Source: a bacterium
GTDB lineage: Bacteria > UBP7 > UBA6624
Assembly (NCBI GenBank): GCA_002716355.1
Contig: PBAU01000002.1
Span: 64,000-95,999, forward strand
Direction of reading: 5' to 3'
DNA: 32,000 nucleotides
The notes under the pieces: model-generated
The model's input: only the letters and a program-made list of their open reading frames with translations
Told to the model about the DNA's origin: nothing
The model's database searches: none
Part shown: piece after piece, positions 11,636 to 19,265 of the stretch
How the letters are laid out: every line of letters starts with the position of its first letter
Position numbering within the stretch: the stretch's first letter is position 1
Position numbers and translations under genes: made by a program

Positions 11636-12436
11636 ATGTTTTTTCTAATGATGTTGTTAATGAAACCATGCCTCGGGCATGATCAGCATTGTGACAAAAG
11701 ATACGACGAGCTTTCTTACCTTGTTACGCATAATGCGATGTCGACATCAGAAGATAGATGGCTTTTCCCCAACCAGGATCGAGGTCTCATTGCTCAGCTG
11801 AACGATGGCGTTAGAGGCTTGTCGTGGGACATCTACGAGCATAATCAGGAGGTTTATCTTTGCCATGGTTATTGCTGGCTTGGAAAAAGGAAATTAATGC
11901 ATGACCTTGTTGAACTCAAAGGTTGGCTAGATGATAACCCCAGAGAGATAGTCTCGATTTTTTTTGAAAGCTATGTCGGGAAGAAGCCGGTTGTCGAGCT
12001 TTTTGAGCAGTCTGGAATGATTAGCTATGTTCACCATCAAGCCCTTGAGCAAGATTGGCCATCCATAATTGATATGATCGACAGCGGAAAAAGGGTTGTT
12101 GTTTTCACAAGTCGGGAAGGCGGTATTGACGACTGGTACCATGATGCCTGGAGGTATGTTTGGGATACAGATTTTTCATACAAAAGCATCGATGACTTTT
12201 CATGCTCAAGGCTCAGGGGCCCAAAAGACCTTTCAGGTCTTTACAGCATAAATCATTTTTTGACAAACCCACTTGCCTCAAAAACACTTGCCTCAAAAGC
12301 AAACCCGTCTGTTTACAAAAGAGCTGAGAGCTGTTGGGTAAAGACTGGGCAAAGGCCCAATTTTATTTTTGTTGATTTTTATTCGGTCGGAAACACCTTG
12401 GAGGCGGTAAGAAAATTAAACTTGTTACATTTTTAA
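11636..12436 (+). CDS. PLC-like phosphodiesterase (PI-PLC X-domain-like protein), probably exported
   Basis: The N-terminal region YDELSYLVTHNAMS....NQDRGLIAQLNDGVRGLSWDIYE...VYLCHG matches bacterial PI-PLC X-domain-containing proteins. Short hydrophobic N-terminus. Confidence 0.7.
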   Translation: MFFLMMLLMKPCLGHDQHCDKRYDELSYLVTHNAMSTSEDRWLFPNQDRGLIAQLNDGVRGLSWDIYEHNQEVYLCHGYCWLGKRKLMHDLVELKGWLDDNPREIVSIFFESYVGKKPVVELFEQSGMISYVHHQALEQDWPSIIDMIDSGKRVVVFTSREGGIDDWYHDAWRYVWDTDFSYKSIDDFSCSRLRGPKDLSGLYSINHFLTNPLASKTLASKANPSVYKRAESCWVKTGQRPNFIFVDFYSVGNTLEAVRKLNLLHF

Positions 12437-12469
12437 AACAAGTTTGAATGCACATAACAAATATACAAT
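12418..12469 (+). promoter_or_regulatory. Candidate operator plus promoter upstream of the PhoU-wHTH gene: AAACTTGTTACA ... ACAAGTTT-N18-TACAAT
   Basis: Perfect 9-bp inverted repeat AAACTTGTT (12418-12426) / AACAAGTTT (12437-12445) with a 10-nt spacer. ACAAGTTT lies exactly 18 nt upstream of the -10-like TACAAT (12464-12469). The same elements and spacing occur upstream of pstS. Confidence 0.45.
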
Positions 12470-13412
12470 TGAGAAGATGATGACAGAGGATCGTACAAAC
12501 AAGGTTCATTTAAACGTTATCAGGTTAGGCAAGCTGGTTGTTTTTGCGTTAAAAAAAGCTCTTAAGGGTAGCACCTTTAACATAGATGCTTTTCTTGCAA
12601 AATGCAGAGCAAGAGAGACTGAAATCAACCTGTTAGAGATGGAAATTGAACAGGATCTCCAGACTTTAATGAGACCAGAGCTGGAAGATAAAGATTGTCG
12701 TCACTTTACAGCGTTGTTGAAAATCAATAATGACCTTGAGAGGATTGGCGATTATGCCATGGCGATAGCTAAATATCTTGTTGATGTTGACATGTCAGAA
12801 ACGGTGAAAATTGAATCCAAATTTAAAAAATTATCAAAAGCATCTATAGAGATGCTTGAAAGATCCGTTAAGGCAATAGAGCTTGAAGATATCAACCTAG
12901 CCAAGCAGGTTATTCGTGATGACGATTATGTTGATAAATTGAACAAGGCAATAATCAAGATTCTTTTAAGCAGTAAAAATCCAGATATGGCTTCGGTTGT
13001 TTCGTTGGTTAATTTGTGTAGAAGATTGGAGAGGACAGCAGATCATGCAACCAACATAGCAGAAGATTTGGTTTTTTGGATAGAGGGTGATGTTTTGAGG
13101 CATCCCACAAAAAAAAGATCCTTTATGTTTAATGAGATTGAAATATATCCAAACAGCAGAGAGATTAAGATTTCAGAAAAGGTCCATCTTTCTAAAAGTG
13201 AATGGGAGATATTCATACACCTTATAGAAAGATCTCCAGACGGTGTTTCTAGAGAGGATCTTATGAAAAATGCTTTAGGCTACGACTCTTCTGTTGAAAC
13301 TCGAACTATCGATCAACACGTGGTTAGATTGCGAAAAAAACTAGGCCACAAAAAAACACTTTTGAAATCTATAGCTGGATTCGGTTACAAAGTGGTTAAT
13401 TCAAAGAATTAA
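12444..13412 (+). CDS. PhoU-domain protein fused to an OmpR/PhoB-type winged-helix DNA-binding domain (no receiver domain)
   Basis: Residues ~15-220 carry two PhoU repeats (LKINNDLERIGDYAMAIAKY; RRLERTADHATNIAEDLVFWIEG). Residues ~231-318 match the Trans_reg_C pattern (LSKSEWEIFIHLIERSPDGVSREDLMKNALGYDSSVETRTIDQHVVRLRKKLG....GFGYKV). The listed start is TTG at 12444. ATG at 12477/12480 (MMTEDR) is at least as likely. Confidence 0.85.
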   Translation: MNAHNKYTIEKMMTEDRTNKVHLNVIRLGKLVVFALKKALKGSTFNIDAFLAKCRARETEINLLEMEIEQDLQTLMRPELEDKDCRHFTALLKINNDLERIGDYAMAIAKYLVDVDMSETVKIESKFKKLSKASIEMLERSVKAIELEDINLAKQVIRDDDYVDKLNKAIIKILLSSKNPDMASVVSLVNLCRRLERTADHATNIAEDLVFWIEGDVLRHPTKKRSFMFNEIEIYPNSREIKISEKVHLSKSEWEIFIHLIERSPDGVSREDLMKNALGYDSSVETRTIDQHVVRLRKKLGHKKTLLKSIAGFGYKVVNSKN

Positions 13413-13415
13413 AAC

Positions 13416-13456
13416 AAATTTGTTACAAGTTTTTAAAAAATCACAAAGAATACTAT
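13416..13456 (+). promoter_or_regulatory. Candidate Pho-box-like operator plus promoter of pstS: AAATTTGTTACAAGTTT-N18-TACTAT
   Basis: The 12-mer AAATTTGTTACA (13416-13427) matches 12418-12429 at 11 of 12 positions. ACAAGTTT (13425-13432) lies 18 nt upstream of the -10-like TACTAT (13451-13456). There is no good -35 hexamer, as expected for an activator-dependent promoter. A strong SD, AGGAGG, lies at 13482-13487. Confidence 0.45.
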
Positions 13457-13500
13457 TTAAGATTTCAACTTAAATCCAAAAAGGAGGATTTTATATAAAA

Positions 13501-14385
13501 ATGAAATTTAAATTTTCAAGCTTTTTTATATTGTTAGTTTTAGTAGTTACCAGTTGTGCAAGGCCGCAGGATTCTGAAGGAAATGCCGCAGGAAGTAGTT
13601 CCTCGGGAAGCGAGCAAAGCATACAGGTGACAGGCTCTGACACCATGGTTAACTTAGGTCAAGCATGGGCTGAAGAATATACAAAAACGAACCCCAACGC
13701 ATATATTGCTGTTGGTGGCGGAGGCTCTGGTGTTGGGATCGCTGCCTTGATGAATGGAACTGCTGATCTCGCAAATTCATCCAGAGCAATTAAGGACAAA
13801 GAGATCTCAAAGGCAAACGAACTTGGCTTCGGTATCAAGGAGTATATTGTTGGTTGGGATGGGCTTGCTGTTGTCGTTCACCCAGATAATCCAGTTAACC
13901 AATTGTCAATTTTGCAAATCGCAGAAATTTTTACTGCCAAAATTACAAACTGGAAAGAGGTTGGTGGTGATGATTTAGAGATTGTTTTGTTGTCACGAGA
14001 GGTAAATAGTGGAACACATGTTTACTTCAAAGAAAATGTCGTTGGATCTTTAGGTAAGGGTACTGAATTCAGCGAAGAGGCGTTATTGATGCCAAGTAGC
14101 CAAGCACTTGCTGATGAGGTAACAAATAATATTGGCGCAATTGGCTATTATGGCATGGGTTATTTGTCACCATCACAAAAGCCAATTGATGTATCTGTTG
14201 ATGGGGTTGTTTTTGTTCCACCAACTATAGAAAATGTTCTTAATAAAACATATCCAATTGCGAGACCCCTACACATGTTTTCAAGAGATAACATTTCTGC
14301 AGCAGCAAAAGCTTATATTGAGTGGATAATGGGAGAGGGGGGCCAGGCTGTTGTTGCAGCACAGGATTTTGTCCCCTTGAGCTGA
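13501..14385 (+). CDS. pstS: Phosphate ABC transporter substrate-binding lipoprotein
   Basis: Lipobox (LVVTSC). PstS-family motifs GSDTMVNLGQAWAEEY, GGGGSGVGIAALMNGTADLANSSRAIKDKE, YPIARPLHMF. Confidence 0.92.
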   Translation: MKFKFSSFFILLVLVVTSCARPQDSEGNAAGSSSSGSEQSIQVTGSDTMVNLGQAWAEEYTKTNPNAYIAVGGGGSGVGIAALMNGTADLANSSRAIKDKEISKANELGFGIKEYIVGWDGLAVVVHPDNPVNQLSILQIAEIFTAKITNWKEVGGDDLEIVLLSREVNSGTHVYFKENVVGSLGKGTEFSEEALLMPSSQALADEVTNNIGAIGYYGMGYLSPSQKPIDVSVDGVVFVPPTIENVLNKTYPIARPLHMFSRDNISAAAKAYIEWIMGEGGQAVVAAQDFVPLS

Positions 14386-14416
14386 CTTTAGCCTGATTTG
14401 ATTAAGATTTGAACTT

Positions 14417-15328
14417 GTGAAAAATATAAAATTAAAAAAGCATAAAACAGAGACTTTCAAACAGCCTCTGTCTGAAAAAATAACAGAGGCATGCTTGCGT
14501 TTTGCAGCATGGCTATGCATCTTTTTTATTGCCTGCATTCTTTATTTTTTAGTAAAAGAAAGTGGCGGGGTTTTTTTTAGTGACATTTTTACTATTACAG
14601 GTAAATTTTGGAGACCAATCAGTGAACCTCCAGATTTTGGTGTTTGGGTATTGCTTGCAGGCAGTTTGGCAGTAACGTTAACAGCATCTCTAATCGCAGT
14701 GCCCCTAGGGATTTGTGCAGCTATTTTTATCGGCGAACTGCTGCCACAGAAATTTAGAGAATTTTTGAAAGTTATAGTTGAATTTCTAGCAGCAATACCA
14801 AGTGTTGTTATTGGGTTCTTGGGCATGATTATTCTTGCACCATACATCAAGGAAGCTTTTGACCTAAAAACAGGCTTAACGGCTTTTTCGGCAGCATTGA
14901 TGCTTGCATGGATGGCAATGCCGACAATAGTCAGTTTAACTGAGGATGCTCTCAGAAGTGTACCTGATACTTTAAGAGATGGGGCTCTTGCTCTTGGTGC
15001 TACCAAATGGCAAATGATCACAAGGGTGCTTTTGCCAACAGCAAAACCAGGCATACTTGCTGCAGCAATGCTTGGTGTTGGAAGGGTGATAGGTGAAACA
15101 ATGGCGGTTTTAATGATTAGTGGTAATTCTGCCAGGATACCAAGTAGCATCATGGAGCCAGTCAGAACTCTCACTGCAACAATTGCTGCAGAAATGGGAG
15201 AAACAGTCAAGGGCGATGAGCATTATCAAGCCCTTTTTGGCTTGGGTGTTGTTTTATTTATTATCACATTGCTAATTAATACTGCAGCAGATAGGTTTAT
15301 TAATAAAAAATACACAGAAGAATCATGA
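14417..15328 (+). CDS. pstC: Phosphate ABC transporter permease PstC
   Basis: Multi-TM protein with the PstC-type EAA loop (LTEDALRSVPDTLRDGALALGATKWQMITRVLLPTAKPGI). GTG start. Position after pstS. Confidence 0.92.
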   Translation: MKNIKLKKHKTETFKQPLSEKITEACLRFAAWLCIFFIACILYFLVKESGGVFFSDIFTITGKFWRPISEPPDFGVWVLLAGSLAVTLTASLIAVPLGICAAIFIGELLPQKFREFLKVIVEFLAAIPSVVIGFLGMIILAPYIKEAFDLKTGLTAFSAALMLAWMAMPTIVSLTEDALRSVPDTLRDGALALGATKWQMITRVLLPTAKPGILAAAMLGVGRVIGETMAVLMISGNSARIPSSIMEPVRTLTATIAAEMGETVKGDEHYQALFGLGVVLFIITLLINTAADRFINKKYTEES

Positions 15329-16185
15329 ACTTTAAAAAACAAAATCCAATCAACCAGCAAAAAAGGGCCACTTTTGGCTTGGGGCTTATAACAGCCATTG
15401 TGGTTATTCCGGTTTTATTGATACTAGGTGTTGTTTTTGTTAAGGGTATTTCAGTTATAGATTGGAACTTCCTGACCACTGAACCCACCAATGGTTTAAG
15501 AGAGGGCGGGGTTTTCCCGGCCATAGTTGGAACATTGATCCTGGTTGTTGGGGCCGTGGTTTGGAGTGTCCCTTTTGGTGTGGCTACTGCAATTTATCTT
15601 GTTGAATATTCTCCAAGAAGCCGAGCAGCTAACTTGGTTAGGTTAGCAATCTTAAATTTAGCAGGAGTCCCCAGTGTTGTTTACGGGTTGTTTGGCTTGG
15701 GGGTGTTTGTCATAGCTTTAAAATTTGGCGCAAGCATTTTAGCGGGAACTTTAACCCTTGCTCTGATGGGTTTGCCAGTAATAGTCACATCAACTGCAGA
15801 AGCGTTAAAAGCTGTTCCTGATAGATTCAGAGAAGCAAGCTTGGCATTGGGTGCTAGCAAATGGCAAACAACTAGGCATGTTGTTCTTCCAAACTCCATA
15901 CAGGGAATTTTGACCGGAATAATTTTAGAAATTAGTCGTGCTGGCGGAGAGACTGCACCAATTTTGTTCACTGTAGCAGCTTTTTATTTACCAAGATTGC
16001 CACAAAGTATCTTTGATCAGGTCATGGCGCTTCCAATGCATCTTTTTGCAATCTCAACACAGGTGCCTAACATAGGCTTGGATGTGAGATATGCAGTTGC
16101 CTTAACGTTGTTGTTTTTAGTTTTAGGCATCAATGCAGTTGCAATTTCCATAAGAGCAAAAATTAGGAAAAACAGAATATGGTAA
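15325..16185 (+). CDS. pstA: Phosphate ABC transporter permease PstA
   Basis: Multi-TM protein with EAA loop (STAEALKAVPDRFREASLALGASKWQTTRHVVLPNSIQGI). 4-nt start/stop overlap with pstC. Confidence 0.92.
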   Translation: MNFKKQNPINQQKRATFGLGLITAIVVIPVLLILGVVFVKGISVIDWNFLTTEPTNGLREGGVFPAIVGTLILVVGAVVWSVPFGVATAIYLVEYSPRSRAANLVRLAILNLAGVPSVVYGLFGLGVFVIALKFGASILAGTLTLALMGLPVIVTSTAEALKAVPDRFREASLALGASKWQTTRHVVLPNSIQGILTGIILEISRAGGETAPILFTVAAFYLPRLPQSIFDQVMALPMHLFAISTQVPNIGLDVRYAVALTLLFLVLGINAVAISIRAKIRKNRIW

Positions 16186-16928
16186 AAGAAATCATTATTA
16201 AATCTTTGTCGGTTTCATATGGAAACAAACAGGCAATAAGAAATTTGTCTTTATCGGTTGAAAAAAATGAAATATTAGGAATCATTGGTCCTACTACTTC
16301 AGGAAAAACAACCTTACTTACAGTTTTAAACAGAATGATCGACACAATACCGTCAGTTGCGATTTCCGGCAATGTTTCCATGGGTGATATTGATGTTTTG
16401 ACAACACCAAACATCCATAGTCTCAGGAGGTCTGTTGGGATGATTTTTGCCCTTCCGGTCGCTTTGCCCATGACTATTAGGGAAAATGTTGAATATGGCC
16501 CAAAGATGGCTGGAGAGGCAAAAGGAGAGTTGGAGACAAGGGTTAAAGAAAGTCTTGTGCAGGCTGGATTATGGGATGAGGTGCACGACAGGTTGGACAC
16601 CCCGGCATTAAAGCTTTCAGGCGGCCAGCAACAAAGGCTTTGCATCGCAAGGGCTTTAGCATTAAAGCCAAAGGTTTTATTGCTTGATGAGCCTTGTTCG
16701 GGGCTTGATCCAATCTCAACATCCAGAATAGAGGATACACTGAGTCAATTAAAAAATGACATGACTATCATCTTGGTCACAAACAACCCCCATCAAGCTG
16801 CTCGTGTTGCTCATCGAACAGCTTTTATGCTTAAGGGCGAGCTTATCGAGCTTGCTGACACAGACACACTGTTCACAAATCCTGCAGACAATAGAACAAA
16901 AGAATACATTGAGGGTAAATTTGGATAA
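16179..16928 (+). CDS. pstB: Phosphate ABC transporter ATP-binding protein, divergent paralogue (Q-loop and H-loop substituted)
   Basis: PstB-like throughout: Walker A GPTTSGKT, canonical signature LSGGQQQRLCIARAL, Walker B LLLDEP, C-terminal EYIEGKFG. The Q-loop Gln is Ala (VGMIFALP, codon 16449-16451). The switch His is Asn (LVTNNPHQAAR, codon 16782-16784). Confidence 0.9.
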   Translation: MVKEIIIKSLSVSYGNKQAIRNLSLSVEKNEILGIIGPTTSGKTTLLTVLNRMIDTIPSVAISGNVSMGDIDVLTTPNIHSLRRSVGMIFALPVALPMTIRENVEYGPKMAGEAKGELETRVKESLVQAGLWDEVHDRLDTPALKLSGGQQQRLCIARALALKPKVLLLDEPCSGLDPISTSRIEDTLSQLKNDMTIILVTNNPHQAARVAHRTAFMLKGELIELADTDTLFTNPADNRTKEYIEGKFG

Positions 16929-17692
16929 TGGCAAAAACTCTAATTAAATCTGAAAAATTCAATTTGTGGTATGGTGACTTTCAAGCTTTAATTGATATAG
17001 ATCTCGACATACCAGAAAATCAAGTTACAGCTGTTGTGGGTCCTTCAGGATGCGGAAAAAGCACTTTTGTTCGTTGTATCAACAGGCTAAACGATCAAAT
17101 AAACACAGTTAGCACCAAGGGTTCTATTTTTATTGATGGGACAGACATTTACCAATATACGGCTGATGAGGTTGTTGGGCTTAGGCGATCTGTCGGGATG
17201 GTTTTTCAGAGACCCAACCCCTTTCCGCTTTCTGTTTTTGAAAACGTTGCTTTTGGCTTAAAGACAAACCCCATGGTTCCTGATCATCAAACCATAAAAA
17301 AGGAAGTCAATAAAGCGCTGCAAGCGGTAGGTTTGCTTGAGGACCTAGACGGTAACCTTGCGAGACCAGGAACCAGTCTTTCCCTGGAACAGCAGCAAAG
17401 ATTATGTATTGCAAGATGCCTGCCAACAAGGCCCAAAATATTGCTTATGGACGAACCTTGTTCAGCATTGGATCCAAGCGATACCGATAAGGTAGAGGAG
17501 CTCATAAGGGAATTAAGGAAAGACTATACCGTTGTGATAGTGACCCACAACCTACAACAAGCTGGCAGAATTTCTGATCAATCTGTATTATTCCATTTGG
17601 GCAAAATTATTGAAGCAGCACCAACAGCAGATTTCTTCCAGAACCCGAAAGAAAAAAGAACAAGAGACTTTATTACAGGTCGTTATGGTTAG
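16928..17692 (+). CDS. pstB: Phosphate ABC transporter ATP-binding protein, canonical catalytic motifs but degenerate signature motif
   Basis: Walker A GPSGCGKST, Q-loop VGMVFQRPNPFP, Walker B LLMDEP, H-loop VIVTHNLQQAGR, C-terminal DFITGRYG. The ABC signature reads LSLEQQQRL instead of LSGGQQQRL (17378-17392). Confidence 0.93.
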   Translation: MAKTLIKSEKFNLWYGDFQALIDIDLDIPENQVTAVVGPSGCGKSTFVRCINRLNDQINTVSTKGSIFIDGTDIYQYTADEVVGLRRSVGMVFQRPNPFPLSVFENVAFGLKTNPMVPDHQTIKKEVNKALQAVGLLEDLDGNLARPGTSLSLEQQQRLCIARCLPTRPKILLMDEPCSALDPSDTDKVEELIRELRKDYTVVIVTHNLQQAGRISDQSVLFHLGKIIEAAPTADFFQNPKEKRTRDFITGRYG

Positions 17693-17701
17693 GAGTTAAA
17701 T

Positions 17702-18349
17702 ATGACTAAAAGATTAACAAAACTTATTGATAAAATCAAAGTAAAAACCTTGGCAATGGCTCAAGATGTTTGCAAATCAATGGATGATGCAATGGAGGCA
17801 ATTTTAAATTCTAGCGATGATAAATATCAAGCAATGAAACAACGAGAAGATAATATTGATTCGCTAGAAGTTGAGATCGAAGAATCCATACTTGGCACCA
17901 TTGCTGTCCATCAACCTGTTGCAGATGATTTAAGAATTCTTGCAGCAATGTTGAAGATTACAAATGACTTAGAAAGAATTGGTGATTATGCGATCAAAAT
18001 TGCTCAAAGGGGCAAGGATATTGACGCCAACTTGATCAAGAGCATCAAAGCTCCTTTGTCTAAATTGGGAACATCTTCAATCCAGATGATTAAAGATGCA
18101 GTACAGGCTTTAGACGCAGGAGATGCAGATTTAGCCCAGAAGGTTAGAGATGCTGATGACCAGGTGGATGAGCTTAACAAATCCCTCATAAAGGAATTAT
18201 CCAAAATCGATGATGATGACTTTGAGTCCTTGGTCGCACTGGTTTCAATATCCAGAAGATTCGAAAGAGCTGCTGATCATGCAACAAACATAGCAGAAGA
18301 TGTTTTGTTCTGGCTTGAAGGCAGGATATTCAGACACGGTGAAACCTAA
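17702..18349 (+). CDS. phoU: Phosphate signalling complex protein PhoU (stand-alone)
   Basis: 215 aa with two PhoU repeats (LKITNDLERIGDYAIKIAQR; RRFERAADHATNIAEDVLFWLEG). Position immediately after pstB. Confidence 0.92.
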   Translation: MTKRLTKLIDKIKVKTLAMAQDVCKSMDDAMEAILNSSDDKYQAMKQREDNIDSLEVEIEESILGTIAVHQPVADDLRILAAMLKITNDLERIGDYAIKIAQRGKDIDANLIKSIKAPLSKLGTSSIQMIKDAVQALDAGDADLAQKVRDADDQVDELNKSLIKELSKIDDDDFESLVALVSISRRFERAADHATNIAEDVLFWLEGRIFRHGET

Positions 18350-18377: not shown

Positions 18378-19265
18378 GTGAAAAAAGTTCGTTATTTTCA
18401 AAGACCATCAGAGTATTGGAAGGATCATGTTTTCCCAATGCGAAAAATGGATTTGTTGAAAAAACGTATCGAAGAATCGTTTTCAATTGATTTTGTTGAG
18501 CCTGACAGTTTGCCAGAAGGTTCAATTGCACTCACGCATCACCGCAATTTTATAAATCGTATACATTCATATTTTGATAACCCCGAAGCTTCTTATGGTG
18601 AGTTTGAAGCAAGATGTGACAGTTGGGTTTTTGAGAACGAATGCAAGGCGGTTGCCGGCACTTTGTCTGCATGCAGGGATGCCTTGCTGCAGGGTTGGGG
18701 TTTTAATATTGGCGGCGGATTGCACCATTCTTTCCCTGATCATGGAGAGGGTTTCTGTATCATTAACGATATTGCAATTTCAATTAACCAACTTATCAAA
18801 GAGGGCAATATCCATAATGCAGCTGTAGTCGATCTTGACGTGCATCAAGGCAATGGTACTGCTGTTTGTTTCCAAAATAGCCCAAATGTAAAAACAATCT
18901 CATTGCATCAACAGCATAATTATCCATCCTGGAAACCTAAATCAGATTTAGACATTGGTTTAGACGACGGAACAGGTGATAGCGCTTATTTGCAGCATCT
19001 ATCAACTGCACTTGATTGGCTTTCAACACAAGATAAACCTGACTTGGTTTTATTTTTGGCAGGTGCTGACCCTTATCGAAAAGACCAGCTTGGAGGGCTT
19101 GCGCTCACAAAAGCGGGCTTAAGCTCAAGAGATAGGCTTGTAATAGAGTGGTGCAAAAATAAAAATTGCCCAGTAGCGATTGTTTTGGCTGGTGGCTACG
19201 CTAAGGATGTAAATGACGTTGTTGATATACACTTTAATACATTCAAATGTTTAATGGAGGTTTAA
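18378..19265 (+). CDS. Histone deacetylase-family (arginase/deacetylase superfamily) Zn-dependent deacetylase
   Basis: Catalytic motifs GGGLHHSFPDHGEGFCIINDIA, DLDVHQGNGT, FLAGADPYRKDQLG. GTG start; the alternative ATG at 18438 would remove conserved N-terminal residues. Confidence 0.85.
   Translation: MKKVRYFQRPSEYWKDHVFPMRKMDLLKKRIEESFSIDFVEPDSLPEGSIALTHHRNFINRIHSYFDNPEASYGEFEARCDSWVFENECKAVAGTLSACRDALLQGWGFNIGGGLHHSFPDHGEGFCIINDIAISINQLIKEGNIHNAAVVDLDVHQGNGTAVCFQNSPNVKTISLHQQHNYPSWKPKSDLDIGLDDGTGDSAYLQHLSTALDWLSTQDKPDLVLFLAGADPYRKDQLGGLALTKAGLSSRDRLVIEWCKNKNCPVAIVLAGGYAKDVNDVVDIHFNTFKCLMEV

Follow-up and report, generated by a model that had tools for sequence, protein, structure and literature searches.

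Complementary motif degeneracy in a tandem PstB pair of a UBP7 phosphate-uptake operon

Pst is a binding-protein-dependent type I importer for phosphate. It is described in PMC12976172 with a PstB homodimer; in Escherichia coli, PstA and PstC each serve as the docking site for one PstB (PMC12976172). The E. coli PstSCAB structures (PDB 9k3x/9k3y/9k3s) comprise two identical canonical PstBs and two consensus ATP sites. Adjacent pstB genes in a pst-phoU operon are found in Firmicutes, where they encode PstB1/PstB2 in Enterococcus faecalis and PstBA/PstBB in Bacillus subtilis. The B. subtilis transporter was modelled as PstBA-PstBB-PstC-PstA-PstS (PMC11466899). In E. faecalis, the genetic roles of the two ATPases are unequal: PstB2 is required and PstB1 is accessory, and both carry identical canonical motifs (PMC12096839). 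According to the same study, tandem pstB paralogues were never compared in any earlier work (PMC12096839). A tandem pstB pair is also present in a 32,000-nucleotide (nt) stretch of DNA from a bacterium of the GTDB lineage UBP7; UBA6624 (assembly GCA_002716355.1, contig PBAU01000002.1, positions 64,000 to 95,999), which is called the window below. It lies in the same kind of operon and belongs to the same transporter family as that of E. coli. Its first gene, pstB-1 (16179..16928, + strand), encodes a protein of 249 amino acids (aa) with a degenerate catalytic face and an intact signature, designated type A. The second gene, pstB-2 (16928..17692, + strand), encodes a 254 aa protein with a canonical catalytic face and a degenerate signature, designated type B. 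Whereas the Firmicute tandem PstBs lack such complementary degeneracy, the two proteins of the window belong to distinct deep clades and share only 37% identity. Therefore, the duplication is not recent.

In a head-to-tail dimer of ATP-binding cassette (ABC) proteins, each ATP site is composed of Walker A, Walker B and the A-, Q- and H-loops of one subunit and the signature of its partner (PMC7756269). Sites in which some of these elements are degenerate are treated in reviews as frequent in ABC exporters (PMC3971661, PMC7756269). Exporters and channels with a degenerate site, among them TM287/288, TmrAB, BmrCD, TAP1/TAP2, MRP1 and CFTR, resemble the window pair in having two non-identical nucleotide-binding domains (NBDs), one fully consensus site and a conserved complementarity. 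However, they are type IV systems with NBDs fused to the transmembrane domains, while the NBDs of the type I importer in the window are free subunits. In the degenerate sites of exporters the Walker B Glu is lost (PMC7756269), and PMC7544095 names the loss of this catalytic residue as the hallmark of such sites. Among importers, one degenerate ATP site has been reported for RbsA and NupO of the CUT2 class (PMC11466899). These proteins are unrelated to Pst and belong to another importer class: Their NBDs are fused in one polypeptide, and they have lost the Walker A Lys and signature residues.

Motif states of PstB-1 and PstB-2

Neither of the two PstBs holds all canonical ABC motifs. PstB-1 lacks the Q-loop Gln, which is replaced by Ala in VGMIFA91LP (codon 91, 16449..16451), and the switch His of the H-loop, which is replaced by Asn in VTN202N (codon 202, 16782..16784). 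Its signature LSGGQ (L146-Q150, 16614..16628), part of the stretch LSGGQQQRL, is canonical and completes the consensus site. The Walker B motif LLLD170E171P keeps both acidic residues (Asp170-Glu171, 16686..16691). The D-loop reads SGLD. The Walker A motif GPTTSGKT (G37-T44, 16287..16310) had been called atypical in the original prediction, which was made from the sequence of the window alone. The deviation is real but less damaging than implied: Lys43 and Thr44 are intact, and the motif still satisfies GxxxxGK[ST], with the second Gly usual in ABC proteins as its one loss. PstB-2 displays the reverse picture. Its signature stretch is LSLEQQQRL, with Leu-Glu in place of Gly-Gly (LSL153E154Q, codons 153-154, 17384..17389). 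By contrast, its Walker A (GPSGCGKS), Q-loop (VGMVFQ94RP), Walker B (LLMD175E176P), D-loop (SALD) and H-loop (VTH207N) are canonical. All these positions lie on the + strand. The remaining motif states listed by the original prediction, i.e. the intact signature, the Q-loop Ala and the Asn of PstB-1 as well as the canonical catalytic motifs and the LSLEQQQRL of PstB-2, were all found where it had placed them. Two additional invariant type A marks were absent from its list: the D-loop exchange of Ala for Gly (SGLD) and a Phe to Leu exchange at E. coli position 103.

When the head-to-tail geometry (PMC7756269) is assumed, all motif deviations of the pair map to one composite site, which leaves the other fully consensus. 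The original prediction had likened this to the pattern known from heterodimeric exporters and CFTR. The complementary logic of a consensus and a degenerate site is indeed shared, but the residues concerned differ. Where the exporters have a degenerate site without the Walker B Glu, type A retains this residue throughout and has instead exchanged the Q-loop Gln for Ala and the His for Asn. Exporters usually retain the second Gly of the signature, whereas type B always has Glu or Asp there.

A closer parallel for the signature is provided by the fungal PDR exporters Pdr5 and Cdr1, in which LNVEQ has a Glu at the same place as LSLEQ of the window and, within the same composite site, the H-loop His has given way to another residue as well (PMC7756269). 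However, Pdr5 is a full-length eukaryotic type V exporter in which the Lys of Walker A and the Glu of Walker B are gone as well. The Q-loop of Pdr5 is replaced, too. When its degenerate site is restored, Pdr5 loses its activity. The resemblance between LSLEQ and LNVEQ is convergent and does not reflect homology at the subfamily level. An acidic residue in place of the second Gly of LSGGQ is also found in CFTR G551D and G551E. There it is pathogenic and located in the consensus site, while in type B it is the conserved wild-type state and falls into the predicted non-catalytic site.

Conservation, strict pairing and common inheritance

The original prediction had named the conservation and co-variation of the substitutions among orthologues as its first check, with unconserved positions pointing to random drift or sequencing errors. 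As PstB-1 homologues, the best 120 database matches were used, which are 53-96% identical to PstB-1. Those named come from metagenome-assembled genomes (MAGs) labelled Firestonebacteria, Deltaproteobacteria, Armatimonadota, Actinobacteria, Chlamydiota and Eisenbacteria. The exchange of the switch His for Asn, the D-loop SGLD and an intact LSGGQQQRL are present in 120/120 of them. The Q-loop Gln is replaced by Ala in 119/120 and by Asp in the remaining one. For PstB-2, 119 full-length best matches were considered, and 110 of these combine an LSxE signature with canonical states of all other motifs. Both sets thus keep the positions in question. The same motifs are carried by a relative with 90% amino-acid identity (GCA_964343345.1).

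A pooled non-redundant set contained 228 type A, 203 type B and 69 canonical sequences. In type A, the Q-loop position is Ala in 97% and Ser in 3%, and the switch Asn, the D-loop Gly and the Leu at position 103 each reach 100%. At the second Gly of Walker A, 84% of the sequences have another residue; this position is occupied by Asn in 65%, Gly in 16% and Arg in 9%, and the Thr found in PstB-1 is peculiar to the lineage of the window. Other elements of type A are preserved, namely the Walker A Lys, the adjacent Ser/Thr, the Walker B Asp-Glu and the LSGGQ (100% each) and the A-loop aromatic residue, Phe or Tyr (94%). In type B, the second signature Gly is replaced by Glu (96%) or Asp (4%), i.e. 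the residue is acidic in 100%, and the first Gly by Leu in 78%. Furthermore, the Q-loop Gln is followed by Arg in 99% of type B, whereas canonical PstB has Lys.

To find further loci in metagenomes, a type A DNA pattern was used that had been verified beforehand: DEPxSGLDP, 21 codons, VTN, three codons and Q. At least 120 matching loci were classified by alignment. Among these listed matches, the next gene encodes a degenerate-signature PstB in 98 of the 98 informative loci, and type A is in no case followed by any gene other than type B. In the other 22 loci, the partner ends before its signature (5), type A lies at the contig end with less than about 400 nt downstream (15), or the contig end truncates type A and only B was scored (2). 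A scan of species-representative genomes with the type A alignment (patterns GGQQQRLC and DEPCSGLD) yielded at least 80 loci, most of them canonical PstB. Among the matches listed, type B comes next wherever a type A gene has DNA downstream of it; the carriers are Planctomycetales, WOR-1, Desulfobaccales and one uncultured bacterium. The counts from both searches are lower bounds and do not estimate prevalence. In loci reached from the type B side, type A is located immediately upstream in 6/6. The prevailing gene order in related loci is pstS-pstC-pstA-A-B-phoU. A tblastn search of PstB-1 against a plasmid collection returned 149 records that were all canonical and below 50% identity, with no type A and no cultured carrier among them. 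Taken at the level of sequence, the complementary A/B pairing recurs in many bacterial phyla, most of them uncultured.

The separation of the two types does not hinge on the motifs that define them. In a neighbour-joining tree calculated after removal of all six motif blocks, 46/46 type A and 46/46 type B sequences fall into two pure clades. Mean identities are 0.53 for A-A, 0.57 for B-B and 0.44 for A-B; compared with canonical PstB (C), they are 0.47 for A-C and 0.51 for B-C. Within a clade, identity goes down to 36%. In a mirror-tree analysis, the pairwise A-A identities correlate with those of the partner B-B pairs with r=0.79 (82 pairs), and 0 of 2000 label permutations exceeded 0.20. Because the clades are pure with the motifs masked and A and B co-diverge, the A/B pair is, as judged from these trees, an old duplication that was inherited and diverged as a unit. 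The check proposed in the original prediction therefore came out in its favour: the substitutions are conserved across many phyla and co-occur in all readable loci, and their carriers form clean, co-diverging clades.

A probable heterodimer with one catalytic site and its alternatives

Quite probably, PstB-1 and PstB-2 act as an obligate heterodimer that energises PstC/PstA and in which only one of the two ATP sites is catalytic. An A2 dimer would have two sites without Gln and His and a B2 dimer two LSLE sites, so that only the A-B dimer would contain an intact site. This, and the fact that both types strictly co-occur, makes the obligate heterodimer the best explanation. Its consensus site, built from Walker A, Q-loop, Walker B and H-loop of PstB-2 and the LSGGQ of PstB-1, would hydrolyse ATP. 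The non-catalytic site would combine the PstB-1 face, which is devoid of the Q-loop Gln and the switch His, with the LSLEQ of PstB-2. It most likely still binds nucleotide because the A-loop aromatic residue, the Lys/Thr of Walker A and the Asp-Glu of Walker B are strictly retained in type A. Tight closure of this site on the γ-phosphate should be prevented by the acidic residue in place of the second Gly of the signature. In CFTR, the anionic substitutions G551D and G551E block NBD dimerisation through repulsion of the γ-phosphate, whereas G551S and G551K do not (PMC4178940). Pdr5 with its LNVEQ retains ATP in the deviant site throughout the cycle (PMC7756269, PMC8421411). The non-catalytic site of the PstB pair would serve as a hinge or an allosteric site, and turnover of the transporter would require about one ATP per cycle. 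HisQMP2 is cited in PMC3971661 for the finding that a single active site suffices for a binding-protein-dependent importer. The asymmetric dimer put forward in the original prediction is supported in that all deviations gather in one conserved, co-inherited composite site opposite a consensus site; the physical heterodimer and the lack of hydrolysis are deduced from this pattern.

Several points weigh against the heterodimer with one silent site. PstB structures in the PDB come from E. coli only. The catalytic Walker B Glu is kept, unlike in most known degenerate sites. MRP1 mutants with the active-site His replaced by Asn or Gln show wild-type-like transport (PMC7756269), so that the exchange of His for Asn alone is no proof of inactivity. 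Nucleotide might be kept out entirely by the Glu of LSxE. The 100% values for SGLD and Asn in the metagenome set are partly built in, since the search pattern demanded SGLD and VTN; the 120 best PstB-1 homologues, which were not selected by a pattern, gave the same result. Finally, among the metagenome matches listed, five loci (L098, L131, L152, L196 and L198) have a separate canonical pstB near the A/B operon, and in these organisms mixed PstB assemblies are conceivable.

Total exclusion of nucleotide leads to an alternative that is unlikely but survives best. Here, the Glu or Asp of LSxE would occupy or block the γ-phosphate position, for instance in a pair with the Walker A Lys. The degenerate site would act as a permanent latch free of nucleotide, with ATP bound at the consensus site only. 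An acidic residue in every type B signature looks like a selected function rather than a mere loss; the repulsion of the γ-phosphate by an anionic residue in CFTR (PMC4178940) and the frequent replacement of the second Walker A Gly in type A point in the same direction. It is, however, hard to explain without nucleotide and Mg why type A should keep the A-loop aromatic residue, Lys, Ser/Thr, Asp and Glu at the frequencies given above, and Pdr5 still holds ATP in its deviant site in spite of an LNVEQ-type signature (PMC8421411).

That both composite sites hydrolyse ATP is considerably less probable. In such a dimer, divergent in sequence and symmetric in function, Asn would stand in for His and other residues would compensate. 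The invariant Walker B Glu of type A and the transport-competent MRP1 mutants (PMC7756269) are in line with this. Yet three independent catalytic elements, namely Q-loop Gln, switch His and signature Gly-Gly, have changed jointly, and every one of these changes lies in a single composite site, while the other site is strictly canonical over hundreds of sequences. An asymmetric constraint of this kind is a signature of functional asymmetry. Moreover, ATP-driven dimerisation of CFTR is lost when the second signature Gly is exchanged for Glu (PMC4178940).

Very improbable is a separate action of PstB-1 and PstB-2, either as alternative homodimers or with one of them as an accessory protein, as proposed for PstB1/PstB2 in E. 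faecalis. There, the tandem PstBs have non-overlapping roles, and an excess of PstB2 replaces PstB1 (PMC12096839). In the A/B systems, by contrast, neither homodimer would contain an intact site, and strict co-occurrence, fixed gene order, overlapping genes and co-divergence tie A and B together. Drift, a decaying duplicate or sequencing errors have a negligible chance and are ruled out by the comparative data: Apart from scores of both proteins somewhat below the TIGR00972 cutoff nothing speaks for them, the reading frames are intact, and, because hundreds of non-redundant homologues share these substitutions (more than 200 of each type, from many phyla and far diverged within each clade), as does the 90% identical relative, the motif pattern is, on sequence comparison, far beyond chance.

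Some loci deviate from the common picture. A canonical pstB is also located near the A/B operon in a WOR-1 genome (L003), and in four of the five metagenome loci named above, the extra pstB is surrounded by a complete or partial canonical pst operon. Organisms with such an extra gene may run homodimeric and heterodimeric Pst systems side by side. Two Bacillota MAGs (L016, 2633-3445; L024, 1894-2655) encode a type-A-like PstB with GPAKSGIT, in which the Walker A Lys is lost, an exchange of the Q-loop Gln for Asp, and LLDRP, in which the Walker B Glu is lost. In L024, it is the sole pstB of a pstC-pstA-pstB-phoU operon. As judged by its motifs, a homodimer of this protein would have no working ATP site. 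A milder or alternative complementary design is found in Anaerolineae (L006, 3980-5569) and Syntrophobacteraceae (L033, 3893-5515). Here, the upstream PstB has the Walker A motif GPAAGGKT, Thr or Ala in place of the Q-loop Gln, and VPHN or VPHS with the His kept, and its partner has LSLGQQQRL, in which the first Gly alone is lost.

Operon context, PhoU and significance

The pstB pair is part of a compact phosphate-uptake operon (12444-18349, + strand) that was delineated from the open reading frame (ORF) list, NCBIfam and Pfam. Both pstB genes are contiguous with pstS, pstC, pstA and phoU. The phosphate-binding protein PstS (13501..14385; TIGR02136, 236 bits) and the permeases PstC (14417..15328; TIGR02138, 284.5 bits) and PstA (15325..16185; TIGR00974, 280.3 bits) score above the cutoffs of their families, as does an ordinary PhoU with a single domain pair (17702..18349; TIGR02135, 162 bits). 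For both PstBs, the PstB equivalog TIGR00972 is the best and a full-length match with 306.8 bits for PstB-1 and 332.8 bits for PstB-2 against a cutoff of 343.2, and both align end to end with E. coli PstB. The stop codon of pstA overlaps the start of pstB-1 within a shared ATGGTAA, and pstB-1 and pstB-2 overlap by 1 nt in TAATG. Such overlaps are typical of translationally coupled subunits. They suggest coupled translation of pstA, pstB-1 and pstB-2, in the case of the pstB pair because stop and start codon overlap in TAATG. An inspection of the region upstream of pstS for a promoter or a Pho box yielded nothing interpretable.

Directly 5' of pstS, the operon starts with a gene for a fusion of PhoU domains with an OmpR/PhoB-type winged helix (12444..13412, + strand; Pfam PhoU twice, Trans_reg_C at residues 245-316). 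Against TIGR02135, the fusion protein reaches 122 bits, which is below the cutoff. This architecture is very rare: When 1.84 billion representative proteins were searched exhaustively, no more than 3 of the 150 best matches covered both halves. The gene is kept in the syntenic relative (L201, GCA_964343345.1). A relative with 65% identity (L203) has a classical pair of histidine kinase and response regulator in its place. From this arrangement, the fusion may be a one-component phosphate regulator that replaces PhoR/PhoB. It was seen in the lineage of the window only and in 0 of 118 other A/B loci examined; on these grounds, it is rejected as a component of the conserved A/B design.

Because PhoU proteins are thought to read out PstB, it had been proposed in the original prediction that a non-hydrolytic site beside two PhoU paralogues might be regulatory. 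In related loci, type B is usually followed by phoU. However, a plain phoU follows pstB in canonical and A/B operons alike, and so the gene neighbourhood lends the proposal no specific support. It is a tentative idea with a rather small chance that the non-catalytic site is a dedicated regulatory site, at which occupancy by ATP, by ADP or by no nucleotide, or the asymmetry imposed on PstC/PstA, would be read by PhoU or a Pho regulator. If true, energisation of transport at the PstB-2 site would be separated from signalling of the phosphate status at the PstB-1 site. In a linked reading, the design would halve the ATP cost per phosphate in energy-limited lineages.

Two neighbouring genes deserve mention. 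A gene of the histone deacetylase family (Pfam Hist_deacetyl, 1.5e-50) adjoins the pst operon in the window (18378-19265, + strand) as well as in L201 (7448-8338) and L203 (2610-3497, - strand). It is located downstream of phoU in the window and in L201, and upstream of pstS on the opposite strand in L203; the linkage is conserved. On the other side, an ORF (11636-12436, + strand) stops 8 nt before the gene for the PhoU fusion protein. Its counterpart in L201 matches PI-PLC X-like and Rv2075c catalytic domains. As far as domain matches can tell, it may encode a phosphodiesterase that is co-regulated with the phosphate genes.

A full-text literature search yielded no prior description of complementary PstB degeneracy; most work in subscription journals lay outside this search, which makes the result absence of evidence only. 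Since both PstBs score below the TIGR00972 cutoff, automatic annotation will not mark them as equivalog PstB. They are listed as plain ATP-binding proteins, so that nothing in current annotation points to their asymmetry. The LSxE signature arose independently of the LNVEQ of fungal PDR proteins, which points to a general solution for an ATP site that does not close. The A/B Pst system would be a natural type I importer in which it can be asked if one hydrolysis per cycle suffices and what purpose the second site has. In PMC12976172, the relay from PstB to PhoU and Pho signalling is presented as a still-open question. A PstB dimer with built-in asymmetry would offer a way to dissect how the conformation of PstB is passed on to this signalling pathway.

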